Below, in pieces: positions 5,055 to 46,506 of a stretch of 64,000 bases of DNA. The notes below the pieces were generated by a model. The model worked only from the letters and a program-made list of their open reading frames with translations. It searched no databases and was not told the origin of the DNA. The stretch is from the NCBI GenBank assembly GCA_036003705.1, contig DASYSE010000126.1, positions 1,746 to 65,745 on the forward strand. Reading direction: 5' to 3'. The stretch comes from Actinomycetes bacterium (GTDB lineage: Bacteria; Actinomycetota; CALGFH01). Both the position numbers and the translations under genes were made by a program. Every line of letters starts with the position of its first letter. Positions within the stretch are counted from its first letter, which is position 1.

Positions 5055-5555
5055 CTAGCCCCAGCCGGGAGTGGTCTGCTCGAAGTTCACCGTCACCCAG
5101 ATGGTCCGTCCGCTGATCCAGGTTCCGACCCCGAACAGGTTGGCCCGGCGGTAGAGGATGTTGGCCCGGTGCTGCGGGGAGTCCATGAACGCGTCCTGGA
5201 GCCGGCGCACCGACGGCCCGATGCCGTCGGACCCCATGGTGCCGCAGCCGACGTTCTGGCCGAGCCAGACCCAGTGGTCGCTGGCACTGGAGATGTCGTT
5301 GTGCCAGAGCGCTCGGCTGTCGCAGCGGCCGCCGTAGCGCTGAGCGGCCTTGCGGGCCATCGCCACCGAGTGCGACCGGGACAGCTTGGCCAGGGTGGCC
5401 GAGGTGGTCAGCGAGCGCAGGCCGTTGGCGCGCCGATCGGCGTTGGTGACGCGGACGAACTCGGCGTCGGTGCGGGGTCCCGCGCCGGCCGGGACCGGCA
5501 GCGCGAGCATGCCTACGACCAACAGCAGCAACGTGAGCAGGCGGCGGACCGACAT
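5055..5555 (-). CDS. CAP (SCP/PR1-like) domain secreted protein
   Basis: N-terminal signal peptide (LLTLLLLVVGMLALPVPAGAG) followed by CAP-like HSVAMARK...HRANIL...FGVG. Confidence 0.65.
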   Translation of the reverse strand: MSVRRLLTLLLLVVGMLALPVPAGAGPRTDAEFVRVTNADRRANGLRSLTTSATLAKLSRSHSVAMARKAAQRYGGRCDSRALWHNDISSASDHWVWLGQNVGCGTMGSDGIGPSVRRLQDAFMDSPQHRANILYRRANLFGVGTWISGRTIWVTVNFEQTTPGWG

Positions 5556-5633
5556 GGGCGCCCTCCTGGGGAGCGGACCTGGGACCGGATGTACGGGTCT
5601 TCGGCCGCTCCGGGGGGGGCCTTGAGCAATTGG

Positions 5634-7484: not shown

Positions 7485-7771
7485 CGGCGGGCCCTGGCTG
7501 GATCCGGGCAAGAAAAGGCCCAGGGGGTTGTGCTCTCCGCTCTTGCAAGCGGCGCCATCTCGGTCGGACCAGGCCGAGGCCCCCTGGGTTCGGTGATCTG
7601 TTTGGATTCCGGGGGTGATCCACTCCCCGCGATCGAGGTCTGATCGCCCTACCGGGCAGTCACCTCACGGGTCCGTACCGGTTCTGACAGCTGGACCACC
7701 TCCCTTCTCGCGTGATTCCAGTTAGCCACACCGCCGTCCGGACCGCAAACATGTTTGGCTACCATGGGGCC

Positions 7772-8755
7772 ATGCACGCATTGACCAGCCCACTCGACGC
7801 GCTCGCGGCGGCAAGGGAGCGCGTGGTCGCGGTCGACCGGCCCGACCTGGCGACGGTCGCCTTGACCGGAGCCGACGTGCTCCGCTACCTGCACGCCGTC
7901 TGCACCCAGCACACCGCCGACCTGCGTCCCGGCGACGCCGCCCAGGCGCTGCTGCTGTCGCCCAAGGGCAGGATCGAGCTCGCCTTCCGGCTGGCCGTGC
8001 TCGATGGCGGCGTGCTGCTGGACGCCGATGCCGAGACCGCCCAGGCGCTGGCCGCGCGGCTGGCCCGCTTCGTGTTCCGCTACGACGTGGCGGTCGCCCA
8101 GCCGGTCGCGGGAGCGGCGACCCTGCTCGGCCCGGCCGCCGACGCCGCCCTGACGGCCGCCGGGCTCCCGGCCCCGGCGGCGGGCCGGGTGGCGATCGTC
8201 GGGCCGGAGCTGGTGGTCCACCGCACGCCGGTCGGGGTCGACCTGGTCGGCCCGGGCGCCACCGCGGCGGCCGCGCGCCTGGAGCGGGCCGGGGTCGGGC
8301 GTGCCACGGCCGGGCTGTGGGAGCTGGTCAGGGTCGAGCACGGTCTGCCGCGGGCCGGCCGCGAGCTGACCGACGACGTGCTGGCCGAGGAGGCAGGGCT
8401 GCTGGGCTCCCACGTCCACCTGGACAAGGGCTGCTACCCGGGCCAGGAGACGGTGGCCAGGGTGCACAACCTCGGGCAGGTCCAGCGCCGCCTGGCCGGC
8501 CTCCGCTTCAAGCCGGCCGGCGGCCGGGACCCCGATGACCTGCCGGTTGGCGTCCAGGGTGGGGACGACCTGCCAGCCCCCCGGACCGACCTGGTCACCG
8601 ACGACGGCCGCCGCGCCGGCCAGCTCCGCAGCGTCGTCCGCCATCCCGAGCTCGGCCCGATCGGCCTGGCCTACGTCCGCCGGGTGGTCGAGCCGGGGCG
8701 CCTGGTGATCGCCGATGGCCGGCTCGCGACGGTCGTCGAGTTGCCGTTCGGCTGA
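7772..8755 (+). CDS. ygfZ: YgfZ/GcvT-family folate-binding protein
   Basis: ...KGCYPGQETVARVHNLG is a hallmark of the YgfZ/GcvT C-terminal barrel. Start at M21 of ORF 7712. Confidence 0.7.
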   Translation: MHALTSPLDALAAARERVVAVDRPDLATVALTGADVLRYLHAVCTQHTADLRPGDAAQALLLSPKGRIELAFRLAVLDGGVLLDADAETAQALAARLARFVFRYDVAVAQPVAGAATLLGPAADAALTAAGLPAPAAGRVAIVGPELVVHRTPVGVDLVGPGATAAAARLERAGVGRATAGLWELVRVEHGLPRAGRELTDDVLAEEAGLLGSHVHLDKGCYPGQETVARVHNLGQVQRRLAGLRFKPAGGRDPDDLPVGVQGGDDLPAPRTDLVTDDGRRAGQLRSVVRHPELGPIGLAYVRRVVEPGRLVIADGRLATVVELPFG

Positions 8756-8807
8756 ATGGCCTACAATCTGTCCCGCTCCGTGGGCCGGTGGCGATCAGGG
8801 GGGATGG

Positions 8808-9350
8808 ATGAGCGTGGAGGTAGTTCCCGGCGGCCAGCGCCGCATCGACCGGGTCCTCGACCCGCGCTTCACCGATGGCGTCGACCAGCTCGGCCTGCCA
8901 GAGCTGCGCGCCCGCCGCGAGGAGGCCGAGGCCGAGGAGGCCGACGTCTCCTACCTGCGGCGGCTGCTCCAGGGCCGGCTGGACATCCTCAGGGCCGAGC
9001 TGGTCCGTCGTTCGACCGGCGGCGACGTCGGCGGCCTGCTGGCCGGCCTGCCCGCCATCCTGACCGACGACGCGCCGGGCACCTTCAGCGCCGTCCCGCG
9101 CGTCCAGGTGCCCTCCCGGGCCGGCGAGCACCGGCGCCGGGTCGAGCGGCTGGTCTCGGACGAGACCATCGCCCGCCTGCCCGAGCTGGACGTCGAGGAG
9201 CTGACCAGGGCGGTCGAGGTGCTGGCGCGCGAGGAGGAACACGTCTCCGGCCACCGGCGGACGGTCCAGCGGGTGGTCGACCTGCTTCGTGGCGAGCTGG
9301 CCCGGCGCTACCGGGACGGCACCGCGCAAGTGTCGCAACTCCTCGAGTGA
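8808..9350 (+). CDS. RsiG-like c-di-GMP-binding anti-sigma factor homolog
   Basis: 180 aa, helical. Two exact E-x3-S-x2-R-x3-Q-x3-D motifs: E44ADVS48YLR51RLLQ55GRLD59 and E143EHVS147GHR150RTVQ154RVVD158. This is the c-di-GMP binding signature of Streptomyces RsiG. Confidence 0.65.
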   Translation: MSVEVVPGGQRRIDRVLDPRFTDGVDQLGLPELRARREEAEAEEADVSYLRRLLQGRLDILRAELVRRSTGGDVGGLLAGLPAILTDDAPGTFSAVPRVQVPSRAGEHRRRVERLVSDETIARLPELDVEELTRAVEVLAREEEHVSGHRRTVQRVVDLLRGELARRYRDGTAQVSQLLE

Positions 9351-9460
9351 TCTCCTCGATCCCCTCGAAGGACTCAAGTCTTGCCGGCTCCGGTCCGATG
9401 GGTACAGAACCGGTCCGACTGCGCCTCCCTGCCCAGCGTGGGCGACGGAAGGTGGCCCCG

Positions 9461-9832
9461 ATGGAGCTGAACCGCGTGCTGGTGGTCGACGACGACCCAG
9501 CCATCAGGCGGGTGGTCTGCGCCCTGCTCGACCTTGACGAGTATGGCCTGCTCGAGGCGGCCGACGGCCAGGCCGCCCTGGAGGTGGTCAGGGTCGAACG
9601 GCCGGATCTGGTGATCCTCGACCTCACCATGCCGAGGCTGGACGGGCTTCGCGCCTGCCAGGCGCTGCGCTCCGACCCGGAGCTGTCCGGGACCCGGGTG
9701 CTGGTGCTGACCGGCCGCGACCAGCCGGACGACCGGGCGGCCGCCCGCGACGCCGGGGCCGACGCCTACCTGGTCAAGCCGTTCTCCTCCCTGGCCCTGC
9801 TGGACGCCGTCAAACAGCTGATGGACGGCTGA
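9461..9832 (+). CDS. response regulator, stand-alone receiver (CheY-like)
   Basis: MELNRVLVVDDDPAIRR...LVILDLTMPRLDG...LVLTGR...AYLVKPF contains every conserved REC residue. Confidence 0.85.
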   Translation: MELNRVLVVDDDPAIRRVVCALLDLDEYGLLEAADGQAALEVVRVERPDLVILDLTMPRLDGLRACQALRSDPELSGTRVLVLTGRDQPDDRAAARDAGADAYLVKPFSSLALLDAVKQLMDG

Positions 9833-9835
9833 GCC

Positions 9836-10651
9836 GTGGACCCGGGCAGCAGCCATCTGCAGCAGCTGGAGGCCGCCGAGCGGCAGCTGCTGGTGTTCGC
9901 GCACGAGATCAACCACCTCTACCAGGCCGAGCGGGCGCGGGCGCTCGAGCTGGAGCGGGCGCTGGGCCGCCTGCGCGAGTCCTACCTCGACATGATCAAG
10001 ACCCTCGCATTCGTGGTCGAGGCCAAGGACCCGAGCACCAGGGCCCACCTCCAGCGGACCCACGACTACGCGGTCGCCCTGGCCGAGGCCGTCGACCCCG
10101 AGCTGGCCGCCGACGAGCAGCTGCGCTACGGGTTCCTGCTCCACGACGTGGGCAAGGTCGGCATCCCCGAGGCGGTGCTCAACAAGCCGGGCCCGCTGGA
10201 CGACGGCGAGTGGGAGGTCATGCGCGCCCACCCGATGCTCGGAGTCCAGATGGTTGCCGGCATCAAGTCGCTCGGCAGCGCCGTCGAGGTGATCCGCTGC
10301 CACCACGAGCGCTGGGACGGCAAGGGCTACCCTGCCGGGCTGGCCGGCGAGGCGATCCCGGCGGGGGCACGGGTGTTCGCCGTCGCCGACGCCTTCGACG
10401 CGATGACCTCCGACCGCCCCTACCGCCAGGCCATGCCCTTCGACCGGGCCTGCCAGGAGATCGCCGAGGGGGCCGGCTCCCAGTTCGACCCATCCGTGGT
10501 CGACGCCTTCACCGCCATCGTCCCGGGCCTCCCCGACCTGCACGCGTCCCTGCACGAGGCGGGGGCCAGGGAGGGCAGGCCCAGCCTGCCGGCGGAGCGC
10601 GCTCCGGGGCTCTCGGTGGTGCCGGCACGGGTCCCGGCCGAGCGGTCCTGA
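9836..10651 (+). CDS. HD-GYP domain c-di-GMP phosphodiesterase
   Basis: HDVGKVGIP...HHERWDGKGYP are the HD and GYP motifs. GTG start 4 nt after the receiver gene stop. Confidence 0.85.
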   Translation: MDPGSSHLQQLEAAERQLLVFAHEINHLYQAERARALELERALGRLRESYLDMIKTLAFVVEAKDPSTRAHLQRTHDYAVALAEAVDPELAADEQLRYGFLLHDVGKVGIPEAVLNKPGPLDDGEWEVMRAHPMLGVQMVAGIKSLGSAVEVIRCHHERWDGKGYPAGLAGEAIPAGARVFAVADAFDAMTSDRPYRQAMPFDRACQEIAEGAGSQFDPSVVDAFTAIVPGLPDLHASLHEAGAREGRPSLPAERAPGLSVVPARVPAERS

Positions 10652-10692
10652 TAGCCTCGGGGGCTCCATCCTCGAGCCCAGGGAGGCGGCCG

Positions 10693-11685
10693 ATGGAGGT
10701 CAGGGCCGAGATCCTCGCCGAGGTCGAGCGGTCCGGGTTCGTCGAGAGCCGGCACCTGGGCGTGGTCGCGGTCGCCGACGCCGACGGCGAGCTGCTGGCC
10801 TCCGCCGGCGACCCGGACCTGGTCATCTACGCTCGTTCCTGCTCCAAGCCCTTCCAGGCGATGGCCGTGCGCGACCTCGGGGTCGAGGCCGAGCTGGGCC
10901 TCGGCCAGCTCGCCCTTGCCGGTGCCTGCGGCTCCCACAACGGCGAGCCCGACCACGTGGCCTCGGTCCGCAAGGTGCTGGAGGCGGCCGGCCTCGACGA
11001 GACGGCGCTGCGCTGCCCGCCGGCGATGCCCACCGACCGCAAGGCCCGCTCGTTGGCCGACGGCCCGGCCGCGGTGTACCACAACTGCTCCGGCAAGCAC
11101 GCCTACATGCTCGCCGGCTCGGTGGTCAGGGACTGGGCCCCCGAGCGCTACACCGAGCCCGACCACCCGCTGCAGGCGGTGGTGACCGACACCCTCAGCG
11201 AGTTCGTCGGGATCCCGGTCGAGCACGTCGGCGTCGACGGCTGCGGGGTCCCCGTCCACGCCGTCCCCCTCCGCGGCCTGGCCACCGCCTACGCCCGCCT
11301 CGGCACGCGCGCCGCCGCGGGCGAGGAGCGACCCGCGGCGGTGGTCGAGGCGGCCCGCCGCCACCCGTTCATGCTCGCCGGCACCGGCCAGCTCGACACC
11401 CTCCTGCTGGAGGCGACCGGCGGCCGGGTGCTCGCCAAGGTCGGCGCCGAGGCCGCCTACGCCGCGGTCGACCTGTCCACCGGCACCGGCCTCGCCCTCA
11501 AGGTCCTCGACGGCGCTCCGCGGGCGAGAGCGGCGGCGCTGCTGGCCGCCCTGCGCGCCCTCGGCTGGCTCGACGGCCAGCAATGGGAGGCCCTGCTCCC
11601 GGCGGCGACGGTCGAGATCCACGGCGGCGGCCAGACGGTCGGCAAGGTCCGCCCGGCCAAGCTCGACCTCCCGGCGCCGGACTGA
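10693..11685 (+). CDS. asparaginase (asparaginase_2/AnsA-like family)
   Basis: RSCSKPFQAMAV...YHNCSGKHAYML. Confidence 0.75.
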   Translation: MEVRAEILAEVERSGFVESRHLGVVAVADADGELLASAGDPDLVIYARSCSKPFQAMAVRDLGVEAELGLGQLALAGACGSHNGEPDHVASVRKVLEAAGLDETALRCPPAMPTDRKARSLADGPAAVYHNCSGKHAYMLAGSVVRDWAPERYTEPDHPLQAVVTDTLSEFVGIPVEHVGVDGCGVPVHAVPLRGLATAYARLGTRAAAGEERPAAVVEAARRHPFMLAGTGQLDTLLLEATGGRVLAKVGAEAAYAAVDLSTGTGLALKVLDGAPRARAAALLAALRALGWLDGQQWEALLPAATVEIHGGGQTVGKVRPAKLDLPAPD

Positions 11686-11788
11686 CCCGCCGACGGTCGC
11701 GCTGCCGCCGGCCAGACGGTCGTGGGCGGCGTTGCTTGCAAAAGTTAATCGTCCGGACTACTCTAGATAGCGTCAGGAGGAGGAAGCG

Positions 11789-12181
11789 GTGCCAGCGGGG
11801 ATTGACCAGCTTGGCGACGTCGGTCGCTACATCCGCGAGCAGCGGCGCCAGGCCGAGCTGTCGCTGCGCAAGCTGGCCAGTCAGGCCGGGGTGTCGAACC
11901 CCTACCTGTCGCAGATCGAGCGGGGGCTGCGCCAGCCGTCGGCAAGGATCCTCAAGGACATCGCCAAGGCCCTGCGGATCAGCGCCGAGACGCTGTACCT
12001 GCGGGCCGGGATCCTCGACGACGACGCCGAGGCCGCCGACTTGGAGGTCGCCATCCTCCGGGATCCCCACCTGACCGAGCGGCGCAAGCAGGTCCTGATC
12101 GACGTCTACCGCTCGTTCCGGGCCGAGGCCGCGGCGCAACCCCGGGCCGAGGAAGCAACCACGAGGAAGGAGCAACCCTAG
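11789..12181 (+). CDS. XRE-family helix-turn-helix transcriptional regulator
   Basis: LSLRKLASQAGVSNPYLSQIERGLRQPS. GTG start with AGGAGG about 9 nt upstream. Confidence 0.8.
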   Translation: MPAGIDQLGDVGRYIREQRRQAELSLRKLASQAGVSNPYLSQIERGLRQPSARILKDIAKALRISAETLYLRAGILDDDAEAADLEVAILRDPHLTERRKQVLIDVYRSFRAEAAAQPRAEEATTRKEQP

Positions 12182-22756: not shown

Positions 22757-24034
22757 TCAGGCCACCGGCCCCGGGGGGCCCGCGACCGGCAGGGTGACCG
22801 TGAAGGTGCTGCCGCGGCTGAGCTCGCTGTCGACCCGGACCGTGCCGCCGTGGGCCTCGGCGACGTGGCGGACGATGGCGAGGCCGAGGCCGGTCCCTCC
22901 GGTCTGGCGGGCCCTTGCCTTGTCGACCCGGTAGAAGCGCTCGAAGATGCGTGGCAGCTCGGCGGCCGGGATGCCCTCGCCGGTGTCGGCCACCTGGAGC
23001 GCGGCCCGGCTCTCGGTGGCGTCCAGGCGGACGCAGACGGTCCCCTTGGCGGGGGTGTAGCGCAGCGCGTTGTCGATCAGGTTGGACAGCAGCAGCCCGA
23101 GCTGGGCCCGGTCGCCACGCACGGCGACGCTGGGCCGCAGCTCGGTGCTGAGCCTGACGCGCCGCTCCTCGGCCCGGTCGGCGTAGCCGCCGACCACCTC
23201 CTTGACCAGCCCGACCAGGTCGACCGGCTCGACGTCGAGGGTTCCCCGCTCGACCCGCGAGAGGTCGAGCAGGTCCCTGGCCAGGACGTCGAGGCGCTCG
23301 GCCTCCCAGCCGATCCGGACCGCGAAGCGGCGGCCGGCCTCCGGGTCCTCGGGCAGGGCGGTCAGCAGGGTCTCGGCAAGGGCCCGCACGGCCGCCACCG
23401 GCGTCTTCAGCTCGTGGGAGGCGTTGGCCACGAAGTCGCGGCGCAGCACCTCGAGCCGGCGGCGCTGGGTGATGTCGGCCATGGTGACCACGATCCGCCC
23501 GGTCGGGCCCCGGTCGGCCAAGGGGAAGGCGCGAAGGGCCAGGGTGCGGGGCTCCGGGAACACCATGGTCAGGTTGCCGACCACCGGTGCCCCCGCCTCG
23601 GCCGCTCTCTCGGCCAGCTCGCTGACCTGGGGGACGCCGAGCACCCGCTGGACCGGCAGCCCCGGACGCAGGTCGTCGGGAAGCCCGAACCAGGACCGGG
23701 CGGCCGGGTTGGCGACCAGCAGCCGGCCGGCGCCGTCCAGCAGCAGCACGCCGTCGTCGAGGGCATCGAGGATCTGACCGGCCCGATCGCGTTCCTCGGT
23801 CAGCCCGTCGAGCCGCTCGCGCAGGCGGGTGGTGATGGCGCTCAGCTCGTTGGTCAGCCCCTGCACGTCGTCCGGCTCGGTCCAGCGCCAGCTGGGAAGG
23901 GTGCTGTCGGCCAGGCGGTGGACGGTCCGGCGCAGGGCGGCGACCGGCCGTCCCACCGCTCTGGCGGTGAGGAAGGCCAGCACCGCCGCCGCCACCAGAC
24001 CGACCCCGATCGCGATCAGGGTGGGCGTTGGCAC
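22757..24034 (-). CDS. sensor histidine kinase (PhoR/SenX3-like)
   Basis: HELKTPVAAV (H-box), DNALRYT (N-box), DTGEGIP, GGTGLGLAIV (G-boxes). Lies immediately downstream of phoU. Confidence 0.85.
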   Translation of the reverse strand: MPTPTLIAIGVGLVAAAVLAFLTARAVGRPVAALRRTVHRLADSTLPSWRWTEPDDVQGLTNELSAITTRLRERLDGLTEERDRAGQILDALDDGVLLLDGAGRLLVANPAARSWFGLPDDLRPGLPVQRVLGVPQVSELAERAAEAGAPVVGNLTMVFPEPRTLALRAFPLADRGPTGRIVVTMADITQRRRLEVLRRDFVANASHELKTPVAAVRALAETLLTALPEDPEAGRRFAVRIGWEAERLDVLARDLLDLSRVERGTLDVEPVDLVGLVKEVVGGYADRAEERRVRLSTELRPSVAVRGDRAQLGLLLSNLIDNALRYTPAKGTVCVRLDATESRAALQVADTGEGIPAAELPRIFERFYRVDKARARQTGGTGLGLAIVRHVAEAHGGTVRVDSELSRGSTFTVTLPVAGPPGPVA

Positions 24035-24733: not shown

Positions 24734-24896
24734 TCGGAACCCCCCTGGGCACCGTGCCGGGCTCGGGTTATTCGTCAGGTCATCGTACGCGCAGGTCGAA
24801 CACCGCGAGGTCCGGCAGGTGGCCGGAAGGGAAACGGACGGTGAAGGTTTCCCATCGCTCGTTGCCCGGACGCGCTGTGCGTGGAATTTTGGTGCC

Positions 24897-25586
24897 ATGC
24901 CGAAGGTGATGGTCGTCGACGACGAGGAGTCGCTGCTCGAGGCGATCCGCTACGCGCTGTCGCGCGAGGGCATCGAGGTGGTGACCGCGCGGGACGGCGG
25001 CGACGCCATCCGCGACTTCGAGGCCGAGCGGCCCGACCTGGTGGTGCTCGACCTGATGCTCCCGACCCTCAACGGCTGGGACGTGTGCCGCCGCATCCGC
25101 GCCAGCAGCCAGGTGCCGATCCTGATGCTCACCGCCCGCGACGCCGAGGTCGACCGGGTGGTCGGGCTGGAGATGGGGGCCGACGACTACGTCACCAAGC
25201 CGTTCTCCCTGCGTGAGCTGGTGGCCAGGGTCCGCGCCCTGCTCCGGCGGGCCGGCACCGCCCAGGGCGGGCTGCGCCCGGAGGCGCCGGTGCTGGAGGC
25301 GGCCGGCATCCGCCTGGACCAGGAGCGGCACGAGGTCAGCGTCCGCGGGACGCAGGTGAGCCTGCCCCTGAAGGAGTTCGAGCTGCTCGAGATCCTGATG
25401 GAGAACCGCAACCGGGTCCTGACCCGCCAGACGCTGATCGACCGGGTCTGGGGCTACGACTACGTCGGCGACACCAAGACCCTCGACGTGCACGTGAAGC
25501 GGTTGCGGGCCCGGGTCGAGCAGGACCGCCACGAGCCCAAGCTGATCGTGACCGTCCGCGGCGTGGGCTACCGGTTCGACGGCTAG
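24897..25586 (+). CDS. OmpR-family response regulator (PhoP/RegX3-like)
   Basis: MVVDDEESL...LVVLDLMLP...ADDYVTKPF plus a wHTH output domain. Divergent from phoU. Confidence 0.85.
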   Translation: MPKVMVVDDEESLLEAIRYALSREGIEVVTARDGGDAIRDFEAERPDLVVLDLMLPTLNGWDVCRRIRASSQVPILMLTARDAEVDRVVGLEMGADDYVTKPFSLRELVARVRALLRRAGTAQGGLRPEAPVLEAAGIRLDQERHEVSVRGTQVSLPLKEFELLEILMENRNRVLTRQTLIDRVWGYDYVGDTKTLDVHVKRLRARVEQDRHEPKLIVTVRGVGYRFDG

Positions 25587-36222: not shown

Positions 36223-36798
36223 TCAGCCGGTGTTGCGCAGGGCGTCCAGGATGTGGCCGCGGATCGCCTGGGGGCCGGCCCCGAGCCGGACGAGGATCAG
36301 CATGGCCAGGCCCTCGCCCTCACGGACCAGGCCGAGCAGGAGGTGCTCGGTGCCGATGTGGCGGTGCTTGAGGGCCAGCGCCTCGCGCAGGCTCAGCTCC
36401 AACACCTTCTTGGCCCTCGGCGAGAACGGGATGTGCCCGCCGACGGGGAACGGGTTCCTGGCGCGGCGGCAGCGTGGGTCGGGATTCCAGTACAGGGCGC
36501 CAGGACCGAACGACGCCTCGACCCGGCGACGCACCTCGTCAAGGTCGATGCCGATCGCGCCCAGCGCCGCGGCGTCCCCAGGGCCCAGCGGGCCACGTCC
36601 GACCTCGGCGAGCATCTCGCGCTCCACCGCGGCCGGCGTGATCCCGAGGCCGGCCAGCACCTGGGCGGCGATGCCGTCGCCCTGCAGCAGCCCGAGCAGG
36701 AGGTGCTCGGTGCCGGTGGAGCCGTGCCCGAGCCGGCGGGCCGACGCCTGGGCGTCGACGGTCACCTTCCTGGCCCGGTCGGTGAAGCGCTCGAACAT
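36223..36798 (-). CDS. Clp amino-terminal (Clp R) domain protein
   Basis: Two ClpN repeats: MFERFTDRARKVTVDAQ...GTEHLLLGLLQ / ...AKKVLELSLREALAL...GTEHLLLGLVRE. Confidence 0.75.
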   Translation of the reverse strand: MFERFTDRARKVTVDAQASARRLGHGSTGTEHLLLGLLQGDGIAAQVLAGLGITPAAVEREMLAEVGRGPLGPGDAAALGAIGIDLDEVRRRVEASFGPGALYWNPDPRCRRARNPFPVGGHIPFSPRAKKVLELSLREALALKHRHIGTEHLLLGLVREGEGLAMLILVRLGAGPQAIRGHILDALRNTG

Positions 36799-37038
36799 TC
36801 AGTCCCTCCGCAGAAGGCCCCGGCGGGCCGCATGCTTCTTGTGGACCGCCTGCCGGCTCACCCCGAGCTCGGAGGCGATCTCCTGCCATGACCAGCCGGC
36901 GGCGCGGGCGCTGGCCACCTGCAGGGTCTCCAGCTGCTCCAGCAGCCGACGCAGGGCGGCCACCGCCCGCAGCCCGACCCGCGGGTCCTTGCTGTCCACC
37001 GCGTTCGCCAGCTCGGTTGCCTCATCCATGGCTGTCAT
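36799..37038 (-). CDS. small helix-turn-helix DNA-binding protein (sigma-70 region-4-like HTH)
   Basis: SWQEIASELGVSRQAVHKKHA; likely co-transcribed with the ClpN-domain gene. Confidence 0.7.
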   Translation of the reverse strand: MTAMDEATELANAVDSKDPRVGLRAVAALRRLLEQLETLQVASARAAGWSWQEIASELGVSRQAVHKKHAARRGLLRRD

Positions 37039-43680: not shown

Positions 43681-46506
43681 TCAGGGCGCCCGCAGGGTGT
43701 GCCCGCCGATCACGCCCCCGCCGGCGTCCACCAGCAGCAGCGCGCCGCCACCGGTGGGCGGCGGTTGGCGCAGCAGCAGCACCAGCGGCTCGGCCTGGTC
43801 GGGCGGCAGCTCGATCCCCTGGAGCCACGGCTGCACGTCGGCGTCCCGGCGGCCGCCCGGGAGCGGGAAGGCGGCCGCCAGGTCGAGCCGTTCGGCGAGG
43901 CTGAGGTCCTCCTGGACGAGCGCCACCAGCTCCGGCCGCCAGGGCTCGGCCACCCGCCCCGGCACCAGCCCCGCCGCCAGGGCCAGTCCGGCCAGCCGCC
44001 TCCCCAGCACCAGCCCGGCGGTCAGCTGGTGGACCCACCTCTCGGCGGCCAGTGCCAGCGGCCCTCCGCCAGCCGCCGCCCACAGCTCGAGACGGACCAC
44101 CCGGGGTGCTCCCGTGGGGGTTCGGGCTGGCGCGGCCGCCCCCCTCCCCGGCGGGCCACCCTCCGGGCCCGGGCCGAGCACGGTCAGGTTCTTGAGCCCC
44201 CAGCGCCCGTCGGCCACCAGCCCGGCCGGGTCGCCCGCCGGCACCGTCGCGGCCCCGTCGGCGGCGGCGACGGCCAGCAGGCAGACGCCCCGGGTCATGT
44301 CGGGGGGCACCTCCCAGTCGAAGCTGGCCACGCCGGACCGGCCCGGCTCCAGGTCGCCGACCAGGCCTGGAGGTCCGACCGGCCGCCAGGGCGACCCCGG
44401 GGGCGGGTCACCGCCCATCACCCACGCGCCGCCGGGGAGGTCGGGCGGCCGCAGGCAGGCCGGGACGGCCAGGACCCGGGCCCGGACGCCCCGCAGCGGC
44501 AGCCCGCCCCGCTGGTGGACCTGCACGTGCACCCGGGCCGGCTGACCGGGCCGGACCCGACCGCCCAGCTCGAGCAGGCCGGCCGCCCCCGGCCCGCGAT
44601 CGTCCTCGAACTCCACCGGCTCCACCGGCCCGGCCGCCGGCGCCGGCGAGGCCTCCACCTTGATGTCCGGGCACTCCCACCACCAGCCTCCGGGCCCATC
44701 CTCGGGACGGGGGCGGCTGGCGCGGAGGACGGGGGCGGCCGCCGCCGGGCCGGGGGCGTCGTCGAGGGCGACCTCCCAGACGCCGCGGCCGAGCAGGCCG
44801 ACCCGCAGCAGGCGTCCGGGCCGGTGCAGCGCGAGGGCGAGGGCCGGGGCGTTGGGCAGCCCGTTCCCGAACGGGTGCCAGCCGGCCCCGTCGTCGACGC
44901 GACGCCACACGCCGGCGTCGGTGGCCGCGAACACCGTGCCTGGCCGGTCCGGGTCGAGGGCGAGCGCGCTCACCGGGACCGCGGGCAGCTCACCGCTGCG
45001 GTCCTCCCAGCTCACCCCGCCGTCGCCCGACCGCCACACCCGCCAACCCCGCGGGCCCGACCAGGCCGCCCACACGATCTCCGGGTGCTCGGGGTCGGCG
45101 GCGACCGCGGTGACGTTCTCCCGCGCCCGCGGCGGGGCGGTCTCCGTCCCGACCTGCGGCGGCTGGTCGGCGGTGGCGGCCTGGGACCAGACCTCGGTGC
45201 CCTCGTAGCTGAGGGTGCCGAGCGCGCCGGCTCCGGCGAGCAGCCAGCGGTGGTCGTCGGGGTGGTCGGCCAGCCGGTCGACCTCGGCGACGGCCAGGCC
45301 GGTGCTCAGGGACCGCCAGGAGCGCCCGCCGTCGGGCGAGCGGAACAGGCCGCCCTCATTGGCCACATAGAGCGTCCCGGGGTCGCCGGGGGCGAACACC
45401 ACGGCGTGCTGGCCCGGCGGGAGGCTGTCGCCGGCCGGCCGCGCCGCCAGGTCGACCCACGACCAGCGGCCGCCCGCCCCGCGGGCCCCCCGGTGCAGGC
45501 CGAACGCGCCCAGCCAGACCACCTCGGGATCGGCCGGGTCGGCCGCGCAGGCCCAGTGGTGCCAGGCCTGCTGGCTCTGGAGGTCGGCCGGCGGCTTGAC
45601 CGGGTCGAACGGGCCGTTGGCGTGGTCGCGCCGCCACAGGTGCCCGACGCCGTCGCCGGCGGCGAACACGTAGGCCACCTGGCCGCCGGCCGCGTGCGCG
45701 ACCGCCACCCGGTCGAAGCCGACGGGTGCCGACGCCAGGACCAGCGGCCGCCAGGTCGCCCCGCCGTCCTCCGACCGGTGCACCCCGTGCTCCCCACCGG
45801 CCAGCAGCTCGCCGCCGGCTCCCGCGGAGACCGCCCATGCCCGGCCGGCCAGCCGCCGCTCCCAGCCGGTGCCGCCGTCGCGTGACGCCCACAGCCCGGC
45901 GGTGGTGGCGGCGAGCAGCCGGCCGGCGTCACCCGGGTCGACCAGCAGGTCGTGGAAGCCGGCGCCGAGCAGCTCGGCTGCGACCAGCGGCCGCCAGGTG
46001 GCCCCGCCGTCGTCCGAGCGCAGCAGCCCGACCCCGAGCGCGGCCAGCGCCTCACCCTGACCGGTGCCGGCATAGGCCACCGCCGGGTTCCCCGGGGCGA
46101 ACGCGACGGCGCCGATGGCCAGCGACGGCAGGTCGTCGGCGCGCGGCCGCCAGCGCCGACCGCCGTCGCGGCTCTCCCAGATCCCGCCGGCGCCGGCGCC
46201 CGCCAGCAGGTGCCCGGGATCATCCGGGTCGATCGCCACCGCCGCCACCCGCCCGGCAACCCTGGGGCGGCTGCCCGGCCCGGACCCGGCCGTGCGGCCG
46301 TGCGGGATCGCGAACGGGCCGAGCGGCCGCCACCCCGGCCCGGGCGGCGCCGCCGCCAGCGCGCCCGCGAGCTCGTCGAGGGCGGCCAGGCGGGCGGCGG
46401 CGTAGGCCGCCCGGTCCTCGTCCTCGAGGGATCGTCGCAGGCGGAAATGGTCGAGGCGGGCACGGTCTGGCGCCCCGGCTCGCCTGGGGCCAACCGGCAG
46501 GTACAT
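43681..46506 (-). CDS. large BNR/Asp-box repeat protein (sialidase/Ycf48-like beta-propeller), no signal peptide
   Basis: At least seven S-x-D-G-G-x-(T/S)-W motifs (SRDGGRRW, SDDGGATW, SRDGGTGW, SEDGGATW, SPDGGRSW, SGDGGVSW, VDDGAGW). The ~300-aa C-terminal region has no recognisable motif. Confidence 0.65.
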   Translation of the reverse strand: MYLPVGPRRAGAPDRARLDHFRLRRSLEDEDRAAYAAARLAALDELAGALAAAPPGPGWRPLGPFAIPHGRTAGSGPGSRPRVAGRVAAVAIDPDDPGHLLAGAGAGGIWESRDGGRRWRPRADDLPSLAIGAVAFAPGNPAVAYAGTGQGEALAALGVGLLRSDDGGATWRPLVAAELLGAGFHDLLVDPGDAGRLLAATTAGLWASRDGGTGWERRLAGRAWAVSAGAGGELLAGGEHGVHRSEDGGATWRPLVLASAPVGFDRVAVAHAAGGQVAYVFAAGDGVGHLWRRDHANGPFDPVKPPADLQSQQAWHHWACAADPADPEVVWLGAFGLHRGARGAGGRWSWVDLAARPAGDSLPPGQHAVVFAPGDPGTLYVANEGGLFRSPDGGRSWRSLSTGLAVAEVDRLADHPDDHRWLLAGAGALGTLSYEGTEVWSQAATADQPPQVGTETAPPRARENVTAVAADPEHPEIVWAAWSGPRGWRVWRSGDGGVSWEDRSGELPAVPVSALALDPDRPGTVFAATDAGVWRRVDDGAGWHPFGNGLPNAPALALALHRPGRLLRVGLLGRGVWEVALDDAPGPAAAAPVLRASRPRPEDGPGGWWWECPDIKVEASPAPAAGPVEPVEFEDDRGPGAAGLLELGGRVRPGQPARVHVQVHQRGGLPLRGVRARVLAVPACLRPPDLPGGAWVMGGDPPPGSPWRPVGPPGLVGDLEPGRSGVASFDWEVPPDMTRGVCLLAVAAADGAATVPAGDPAGLVADGRWGLKNLTVLGPGPEGGPPGRGAAAPARTPTGAPRVVRLELWAAAGGGPLALAAERWVHQLTAGLVLGRRLAGLALAAGLVPGRVAEPWRPELVALVQEDLSLAERLDLAAAFPLPGGRRDADVQPWLQGIELPPDQAEPLVLLLRQPPPTGGGALLLVDAGGGVIGGHTLRAP

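Follow-up and report, generated by a model that had tools for sequence, protein, structure and literature searches.

A 64-kb stretch of DNA from an uncultured soil actinobacterium (contig DASYSE010000126.1; GC content ~73%; hereafter the window) carries a gene cluster, conserved in several lineages, in which rsiG, the gene of a predicted anti-sigma factor dependent on cyclic di-GMP (c-di-GMP), is followed directly by the genes of a stand-alone receiver and a stand-alone HD-GYP protein. We consider it somewhat probable (roughly 55%) that the three genes make up a self-contained c-di-GMP switch cassette whose receiver-gated HD-GYP enzyme would release a sigma factor from RsiG, with feedback in the clade to which the window belongs. 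The cluster is made up of the following features, with sizes in amino acids (aa) and nucleotides (nt):

8808-9350, + strand: rsiG, a twin-motif member of the RsiG family and predicted c-di-GMP-dependent anti-sigma factor, 180 aa; Pfam PF22802, 109.8 bits
8937-8984, + strand: predicted c-di-GMP-binding motif 1, EADVSYLRRLLQGRLD, RsiG residues 44-59
9234-9281, + strand: predicted c-di-GMP-binding motif 2, EEHVSGHRRTVQRVVD, RsiG residues 143-158
9351-9460: rsiG-receiver intergenic region, 110 nt
9373-9401, + strand: sigma-28/WhiG-type promoter-like element, CTCAAG-N15-TCCGATGG, which fits the WhiG2 search pattern of PMC12871210
9461-9832, + strand: stand-alone CheY-like receiver (REC), 123 aa, no output domain; Pfam PF00072, 99.6 bits
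9836-10651, + strand: stand-alone HD-GYP protein, 271 aa, GTG start; Pfam HD_5, 119.9 bits

An initial annotation, made from the letters of the window, had placed a receiver gene and an HD-GYP gene directly after an RsiG-like gene, with the HD-GYP GTG start 4 nt past the receiver stop, and both details are borne out by the gene table (TGA at 9830-9832, gcc, GTG at 9836). Its end coordinate for the module, 11685, has to be corrected: this position belongs to an L-asparaginase II gene (10693-11685) that went unmentioned there, and the HD-GYP gene ends at 10651. The 180+123+271-aa arrangement is repeated on six independent JGI metagenome contigs and, because it is identical on all of them, it is not an assembly artefact. 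NCBI names the identical RsiG protein, which is present on JGI metagenome contigs, ‘aerial mycelium formation protein’. A 298-aa predicted protein on one 1.9-kb JGI contig (P0074) leads from the first 140 residues of RsiG, via a frameshift that eliminates motif 2, into the receiver, and reflects either a faulty assembly or natural frameshift variation.

The RsiG-like reading of the 180-aa protein, put forward in the initial annotation on account of its motifs, is now supported by the Pfam profile, a full-length alignment to a solved structure, the predicted fold and a Streptomyces-type gene neighbourhood, all of which agree. The two copies of the signature E-x3-S-x2-R-x3-Q-x3-D reported there are indeed exact, at residues 44-59 and 143-158, and they are the only 2 occurrences in the six translated frames of the window (127,996 aa); the composition-based expectation is 3.7e-4 per protein of RsiG's kind. 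The Pfam RsiG profile matches in two stretches, with a score far above its cut-off (109.8 bits vs 27; E 5.1e-32), and NCBIfam holds no model that matches the protein. In a phmmer search of PDB sequences, residues 7-179 align with residues 4-175 of Streptomyces venezuelae RsiG/AmfC (6pfj/6pfv; E 5.4e-25), i.e., from end to end, and the first helix aligns with the single-motif RsiG of Rubrobacter (7lq2-4; E 1e-6); searches against these two proteins had been proposed in the initial annotation as a check on its reading.

An AlphaFold2 model of RsiG based on 32 homologs (predicted local distance difference test, pLDDT, 77; predicted template modelling score, pTM, 0.71) has two long helices, of which that of residues 30-70 carries motif 1 and that of residues 129-170 carries motif 2, while the linker (residues 80-98) is of low confidence. 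When this model is compared with the PDB by Foldseek, chains of 6pfv/6pfj are the only RsiG-like or other hits of any significance (E 5e-6 to 3.4e-5; template modelling (TM) score 0.65-0.78; probability 1.00), the first match outside RsiG having an E-value of 0.8. Across 32 homologs of 68-92% identity, E44, S48, R51 and D59 of motif 1 and E143, S147, R150 and D158 of motif 2 are invariant, and Q55 and Q154 are nearly so. The gene neighbours are those of rsiG in Streptomyces, with ygfZ upstream and asparaginase II downstream. By sequence, modelled fold and gene context, the window protein is an RsiG ortholog and no chance carrier of a motif. Its start is set at 8808 because the N-terminus MSVEVVPGGQRRIDRVL is conserved among homologs; an upstream ATG at 8715, giving 211 aa, was rejected, as the homologs begin MSVE..PGGxRRIDRVL.

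Both motifs of the window protein contain the canonical Gln. In distant lineages that bear the cluster (loci L018, L022, L023, L027 and L095-L097; L-numbers denote the rsiG loci of relatives), the Gln of motif 2 is replaced by Leu or Phe, and the same replacement is seen in L020, an Egicoccus locus without the REC/HD-GYP cluster. In L027, the Glu of motif 1 is missing as well. Genes encoding such variant RsiG proteins lie at L018:244-852, L023:3491-4081 and L027:5050-5586.

The product of the second gene aligns with PF00072 over the entire profile (positions 1-111 of 111; 99.6 bits) and has the residues that mark a receiver, namely VVDDD as the acidic pocket, a phospho-acceptor Asp within VILDLTMP, T/S at its usual position and, within KPF, the Lys. 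That Asp and the Lys (in KP[FY]S) do not vary among 12 receiver orthologs, and the protein is predicted to be phosphorylatable. The HD-GYP protein, in turn, has the motifs LLHDVGK and HHERWDGKGYP in addition to its HD_5 match (119.9 bits), and it aligns with V-cGAP3 (5z7c, E 1.6e-43), PmGH (4mcw, E 8e-41) and PA4781 (4r8z). It also matches the NCBIfam model NF053512 for REC-HD-GYP proteins of the ‘NosR family’ with 140 bits over profile positions 160-355 of 422, which correspond to the part after the receiver.

Aligned with 4mcw, the protein retains the metal ligands H, HD, H, HH and D together with the GYP loop, and none of these varies in 12 HD-GYP orthologs. The position equivalent to E185 of PmGH, a ligand of the third metal, is a Ser in the window protein (KDPSTRAH vs KDPETQNH), and neither Glu nor Asp occurs there in any of the 12 orthologs. 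This assigns the HD-GYP protein to the binuclear class, in which hydrolysis generally ends at pGpG (bioRxiv 10.1101/2021.11.05.467447), and it is predicted to be a binuclear c-di-GMP phosphodiesterase. All 12 orthologs share a conserved N-terminal helix of ~45 residues (QL..FA.E.N..Y..ER.R..ELE.AL; 9836-9970, HD-GYP residues 1-45), which could plausibly serve to dock the receiver or to form a dimer.

In the window, the receiver TGA and the HD-GYP GTG lie in one frame, one codon apart (9830-9838), so that the pair mimics a fusion split by a nonsense codon. An RpfG-type fusion broken in this way was considered and rejected: all six independent metagenome contigs show the same split, L007 and L008, which are close relatives, have receiver and HD-GYP in different frames, an overlap of 4-11 nt is seen in L018, L027, L095-L097, L099 and L100, and a REC domain is present in 0/120 of the closest HD-GYP homologs, all of which are stand-alone. 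The shared frame is coincidental, and the receiver and HD-GYP pair is an anciently split ‘RpfG’.

How faithfully these genes stay together was assessed in relatives. A scan with the RsiG alignment, using one genome per GTDB species, gave 530 relatives, of which 80 were retained (L007-L086), and the window proteins were searched by tblastn against these 80 rsiG loci. The neighbouring genes that matter for the comparison are the following:

7712-8755, + strand: ygfZ/CAF17-like folate-binding protein gene; NCBIfam TIGR03317, E 1.9e-22, and Pfam GCV_T; synteny anchor, outside the module
10693-11685, + strand: L-asparaginase II family gene; Pfam PF06089, E 1.5e-101; outside the module
11789-12181, + strand: XRE-type helix-turn-helix (HTH) gene

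ygfZ lies upstream of rsiG in nearly all of the 80 loci, and on the downstream side the ancestral neighbour is the asparaginase II gene. A gene order of ygfZ-rsiG-asparaginase II, in many cases with the XRE gene next, is found in ~60 Streptomyces species and also in Kineosporiaceae, Motilibacter, Trujillonella (Geodermatophilaceae) and several metagenome-assembled genomes (MAGs) of Mycobacteriales; tblastn detected neither REC nor HD-GYP at the rsiG locus in any of these. The same order (window 7712-12181, ~80 loci) is strongly conserved from Streptomyces to Nitriliruptoria, and in the window's clade the conserved block extends upstream to GlnR-ThiS-LmeA.

REC and HD-GYP genes stand between rsiG and asparaginase II in L007 and L008, whose RsiG proteins are 90-93% identical to that of the window, as well as in L018 (a Nitriliruptorales MAG) and L027 (another Actinomycetota MAG). 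The full triad is also present in L093 and L098 (RsiG identity 66-74%) and in L095, L096, L097, L099 and L100 (RsiG identity ~45-52%). In the latter five loci the upstream genes are different, namely BKACE, hydrolase or AMP-ligase genes, and in two of them extra genes (CEMIP or metallophosphatase) separate the triad from asparaginase. The triad holds together where its surroundings change, and the compact rsiG-receiver-HD-GYP module proposed in the initial annotation is a conserved gene cluster in several lineages. The reverse approach, in which seven HD-GYP orthologs (60-67% identity) were picked solely for their long contigs and regardless of context, led back to the same arrangement: 7/7 lie directly downstream of rsiG, with the receiver in between in six and no receiver in L101. 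One HD-GYP homolog with the same similarity profile (P0198 and P0240) is labelled Frankiaceae MAG by NCBI. This HD-GYP family appears to be a specific ‘RsiG-associated’ subfamily. For the neighbourhood of the single-motif Rubrobacter RsiG, a protein search with a 48-aa fragment taken from the PDB alignment gave no candidates.

Gene spacing points in the same direction. The stop of rsiG and the start of the receiver gene overlap or are separated by a very short gap in L022, L023, L027, L093, L096 and L099, and receiver and HD-GYP genes overlap in the seven loci named above for their 4-11-nt overlaps; because stop and start codons overlap or nearly touch, a single operon is indicated in those lineages. 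Among 10 triad loci, the pairwise identities of RsiG and HD-GYP correlate with a Spearman coefficient of 0.81, a value drawn from non-independent pairs for which a p-value is not meaningful and which is consistent with co-inheritance. Within the window's synteny clade (RsiG 66-76% identity), each state is represented: the triad in L093, HD-GYP only in L089 and L091, and neither gene in L087. The simplest reading of this distribution would be an old cassette at a fixed chromosomal position that underwent repeated partial or complete loss, including in Streptomyces, with lateral transfer of the whole block as a possible alternative to repeated loss. Two Nitriliruptoraceae loci illustrate what partial loss can look like: only a 103-aa C-terminal HD-GYP remnant, with the HD motif region deleted, is left at L022:8937-9248, and the receivers of both L022 and L023 (4081-4488) overlap rsiG by ATGA.

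The intergenic region between rsiG and the receiver gene contains a promoter-like element that reads TCAA-N16-TCCGATGG (9374-9401; in terms of the pattern, TCAA-N16-TCCGA) and lies 60 nt before the receiver ATG. The criteria by which Denis et al. (PMC12871210) searched for WhiG2 promoters were T(A/C)AA, N16 and GCCGA with at most one mismatch, an intact CGA and a distance of at most 200 bp from the start codon; the element at 9373-9401 agrees with these, its one mismatch being a G to T change. It also has the N16 spacing, which separates WhiG from true flagellar sigma factors (PMC7005675). The loose promoter pattern has 4 matches in the window vs 0.98 expected, and the stricter CTCAAG-N16-CCGA has 3 vs 0.15 expected, a number that 0/100 shuffles reached. 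CTCAAG and CCGAT are invariant in L007, L008, L089, L091, L093 and L101, where the spacer is freely substituted, and L098 has a CTTAAG variant. With this variant included, the element is present in 8/8 members of the window's clade that have HD-GYP, and it precedes whichever gene comes first, be it the receiver or, where the receiver has been lost, HD-GYP; it is absent from L087, which has neither. The receiver ATG is located 8 nt past the -10 element in L007 and L008, a spacing that would be compatible with a leaderless transcript. A scan of 8600-10800 gave no match to a sigma-70-type promoter or an intrinsic terminator. We infer that the element may act as the sigma-28/WhiG-type promoter of the receiver/HD-GYP operon in the window's clade.

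The motif recurs elsewhere in the window. CTCAAG-N15-GCCGAAGA at 5598-5626 (- strand) is a second copy, 43 nt before the ATG of an open reading frame (5055-5555, - strand) that encodes a 166-aa secreted protein of the CAP/SCP family (Pfam PF00188) and has a strong ribosome-binding site, AGGAGG; this gene is possibly a further member of the same regulon. The third CTCAAG-N16-CCGA match (36347-36372, - strand) falls within a gene for a Clp_N-domain protein (36223-36798, - strand) and has no obvious downstream target, so that it may be a chance match or an internal or antisense promoter. The enrichment of the motif and its second copy are an indirect hint that the organism has a sigma factor of the WhiG/sigma-28 class.

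Such a factor would be encoded outside the window. As the initial annotation had stated, no FliA/WhiG-type sigma gene lies within it: tblastn with S. venezuelae WhiG (residues 47-274, sequence taken from the PDB alignment) gives a best E-value of 0.79, and the same query finds no sigma-28 homolog in the 64 kb or in any relative locus retrieved. A 79-aa protein (36799-37038) was considered as the sigma factor and rejected, its matches to HTH and sigma-70 region 4 being weak. In S. venezuelae, ~1.5 Mb separate rsiG from whiG (PMC7005675), so that the absence of whiG from 64 kb is uninformative. whiG is present in 134/134 genomes with rsiG (PMC7005675), and the presence of RsiG correlates with the WhiG2 clade (PMC12871210). 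One histidine kinase was identified in the window, a PAS-HisKA-HATPase protein (22757-24034, - strand) encoded near an OmpR-type response regulator (24819-25586, + strand); it was rejected as the partner of the orphan receiver, since it looks like a self-contained pair with its own OmpR-type regulator.

From these parts, a mechanism can be proposed. At high c-di-GMP, RsiG would clamp a c-di-GMP dimer and sequester a WhiG2-type sigma-28 factor encoded elsewhere in the genome, a step modelled on the characterised systems of S. venezuelae and Rubrobacter. A histidine kinase would then phosphorylate the receiver, which would activate the HD-GYP enzyme, probably via the conserved N-terminal helix. 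c-di-GMP would be hydrolysed, presumably to pGpG given the binuclear site, and its level would fall locally or globally, whereupon RsiG would lose its ligand and the sigma factor would be released. In the window's clade, the freed sigma factor would transcribe the receiver/HD-GYP operon and raise phosphodiesterase levels, and this positive feedback loop, proposed because a conserved promoter-like motif precedes receiver/HD-GYP in that clade, would make the switch sharp or irreversible. A bolder version of the proposal, which we regard as tentative and rather less probable than not to be right in full, holds that rsiG-REC-HD-GYP is the ancestral RsiG locus, an autonomous and autocatalytic cassette whose phosphorelay-gated phosphodiesterase would, in at least one clade, be transcribed by the sigma factor that it sets free, for a bistable commitment, and that Streptomyces and other model actinomycetes are derived by loss and use unlinked enzymes such as RmdB instead.

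Several observations weigh against the cassette as proposed. The module is dispensable, in that Streptomyces operates the RsiG switch without it; close relatives of the window lack REC (L089, L091, L101) or both REC and HD-GYP (L087), and of the two Nitriliruptoraceae MAGs, both of which keep the receiver, L022 has a truncated HD-GYP gene and L023 none. The cluster has no linked histidine kinase in the window, nor is one conserved near the triad in the other loci. In the promoter-like element, the first G of the consensus is replaced by T or A and the terminal AA is missing, and the element was not found in L095-L097, L099, L100, L018 and L027; in these seven loci the receiver gene lies close up against rsiG, and the transcript presumably begins upstream of both. 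Finally, the solved structure that best matches the HD-GYP protein is a 3′3′-cGAMP-specific phosphodiesterase of V. cholerae (5z7c), cGAMP being cyclic GMP-AMP.

These points invite other explanations. The pattern of loss, in which the receiver/HD-GYP pair repeatedly disappears while rsiG stays, would also be expected if the pair were a general turnover unit for c-di-GMP or another nucleotide that was inserted once into a stable block and has no specific functional tie to RsiG. Strong synteny marks the block as a whole (GlnR-ThiS-LmeA-YgfZ-RsiG-AsnII-XRE), in which AsnII and ygfZ accompany rsiG just as faithfully, without an evident functional connection to it. Against such passive linkage, the triad is intact in the five loci where both flanks have changed, the overlapping stop and start codons of rsiG and REC indicate co-translation, all seven sampled members of the HD-GYP family adjoin rsiG, and the products of rsiG and the HD-GYP gene handle the same small molecule; we hold a purely positional association to be unlikely. 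The Nitriliruptoraceae loci, where the receiver is translationally coupled to rsiG (ATGA) and HD-GYP is truncated or gone, would fit a receiver that targets RsiG, or its complex with the sigma factor, directly as a phosphorylation-dependent antagonist, in the manner of an anti-anti-sigma partner switch, with HD-GYP as an accessory, and a protein antagonist has a precedent in S. venezuelae RmdB, which binds WhiG and blocks RsiG (PMC13232838). Yet the opposite state, HD-GYP without a receiver, is at least as common (L089, L091, L101), the pair mirrors the fused RpfG-type architecture and has a REC-HD-GYP fusion as its nearest curated family, and a contact between REC and RsiG is without any supporting sign, which makes direct antagonism improbable.

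The match to V-cGAP3, slightly ahead of that to PmGH, raises the question of substrate. For HD-GYP domains, activity towards cGAMP and effects exerted by protein interactions are both known (bioRxiv 10.1101/2021.11.05.467447), and members of the binuclear class, to which the Ser at the E185 position assigns the window protein, are more variable in activity; the enzyme might thus act on another cyclic dinucleotide, e.g. 3′3′-cGAMP, or via protein contacts, and be linked to RsiG indirectly. However, its catalytic and metal-binding residues and GYP loop do not vary across the 12 orthologs, c-di-GMP is the known ligand of the product of its one conserved partner gene, RsiG discriminates against cyclic di-AMP (c-di-AMP) (PMC7005675), and no cGAMP synthase gene was identified in the annotated parts of the window, the annotation being partial. 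We give this explanation little weight and favour the receiver-gated c-di-GMP switch cassette.

Compared with known systems, the window protein is closest to S. venezuelae RsiG (Vnz_19430/AmfC; 6pfj, 6pfv; PMC7005675), with which it shares family, fold, length, one motif per long helix and the same context (ygfZ upstream, asparaginase II downstream), at 42-43% identity from end to end. In Streptomyces (~60 loci), however, rsiG is followed by asparaginase II or other genes and never by receiver/HD-GYP, and termination of the signal is attributed to RmdB, an unlinked GGDEF-EAL protein (PMC13232838), whereas the window has a linked receiver and HD-GYP. The hosts differ as well, the window coming from an uncultured actinomycete. 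RmdB was reported in 2026 as a phosphodiesterase that acts locally on the RsiG-WhiG node of S. venezuelae (PMC13232838).

RpfG-type REC-HD-GYP regulators (Xanthomonas RpfG; NF053512 ‘NosR family’) resemble the pair in that a receiver domain governs HD-GYP, as is predicted here. In these regulators both domains sit in one polypeptide, whereas in the window and all relatives examined they are encoded by two genes, and the pair is linked to an anti-sigma gene and to no kinase. Among characterised HD-GYP proteins, PmGH (Persephonella marina, 4mcw) and PA4781 (4r8z) have the ligands H, HD, H, HH and D and the GYP loop in common with the window protein. PmGH has the third-metal ligand E185, whereas the window protein has Ser, is binuclear like PA4781 and is expected to stop at pGpG (bioRxiv 10.1101/2021.11.05.467447); and while the N-terminus of PmGH and PA4781 is a GAF or REC domain, that of the window protein is a single conserved helix. 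A T(A/C)AA-N16-GCCGA motif before a gene of c-di-GMP metabolism is also known from the WhiG-dependent dgc/pde genes of Rubrobacter and other Actinomycetota, for which feedback loops have been proposed, both in Rubrobacter and phylum-wide (PMC8325347, PMC12871210). Unlike these targets, the candidate target described here is attached to rsiG and predicted to be gated by a phosphorylatable receiver.

Outside the cluster, a 941-aa open reading frame (43681-46506, - strand) fills a stretch of 80% GC and contains repeated S-x-D-G-G-x-x-W (BNR/Asp-box-like) motifs; it was missed by the GC3-based gene caller, which relies on GC content at third codon positions.

RsiG outside Streptomyces is well documented (PMC7005675, PMC8325347, PMC12871210), and the window RsiG is a new member of a known family, so that the protein itself is not new. 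The linkage of rsiG to receiver and HD-GYP genes is a different matter: no description of it was found in the open-access full-text literature, and two papers on RsiG/WhiG evolution (PMC8325347, PMC12871210) mention neither HD-GYP nor the genes around rsiG in their main text. The rsiG-REC-HD-GYP cluster is apparently an undescribed conserved gene module. As an advance, it is an incremental variant that extends an established paradigm and introduces no new principle.

The shut-off of the c-di-GMP signal at the RsiG-WhiG complex has been described as poorly understood even in Streptomyces (PMC13232838). For actinobacteria outside that genus, the cluster names candidates for switching off RsiG, namely an HD-GYP enzyme under the control of a receiver and, probably, feedback by the sigma factor. 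With such an arrangement, two-component input from the environment or from development would feed straight into the anti-sigma switch, in a minimal system of four proteins and one nucleotide. The ‘RsiG-associated’ HD-GYP subfamily should be useful for annotation, and an ancestral cassette with repeated loss would offer an evolutionary account of why Streptomyces runs the same anti-sigma switch without the module.

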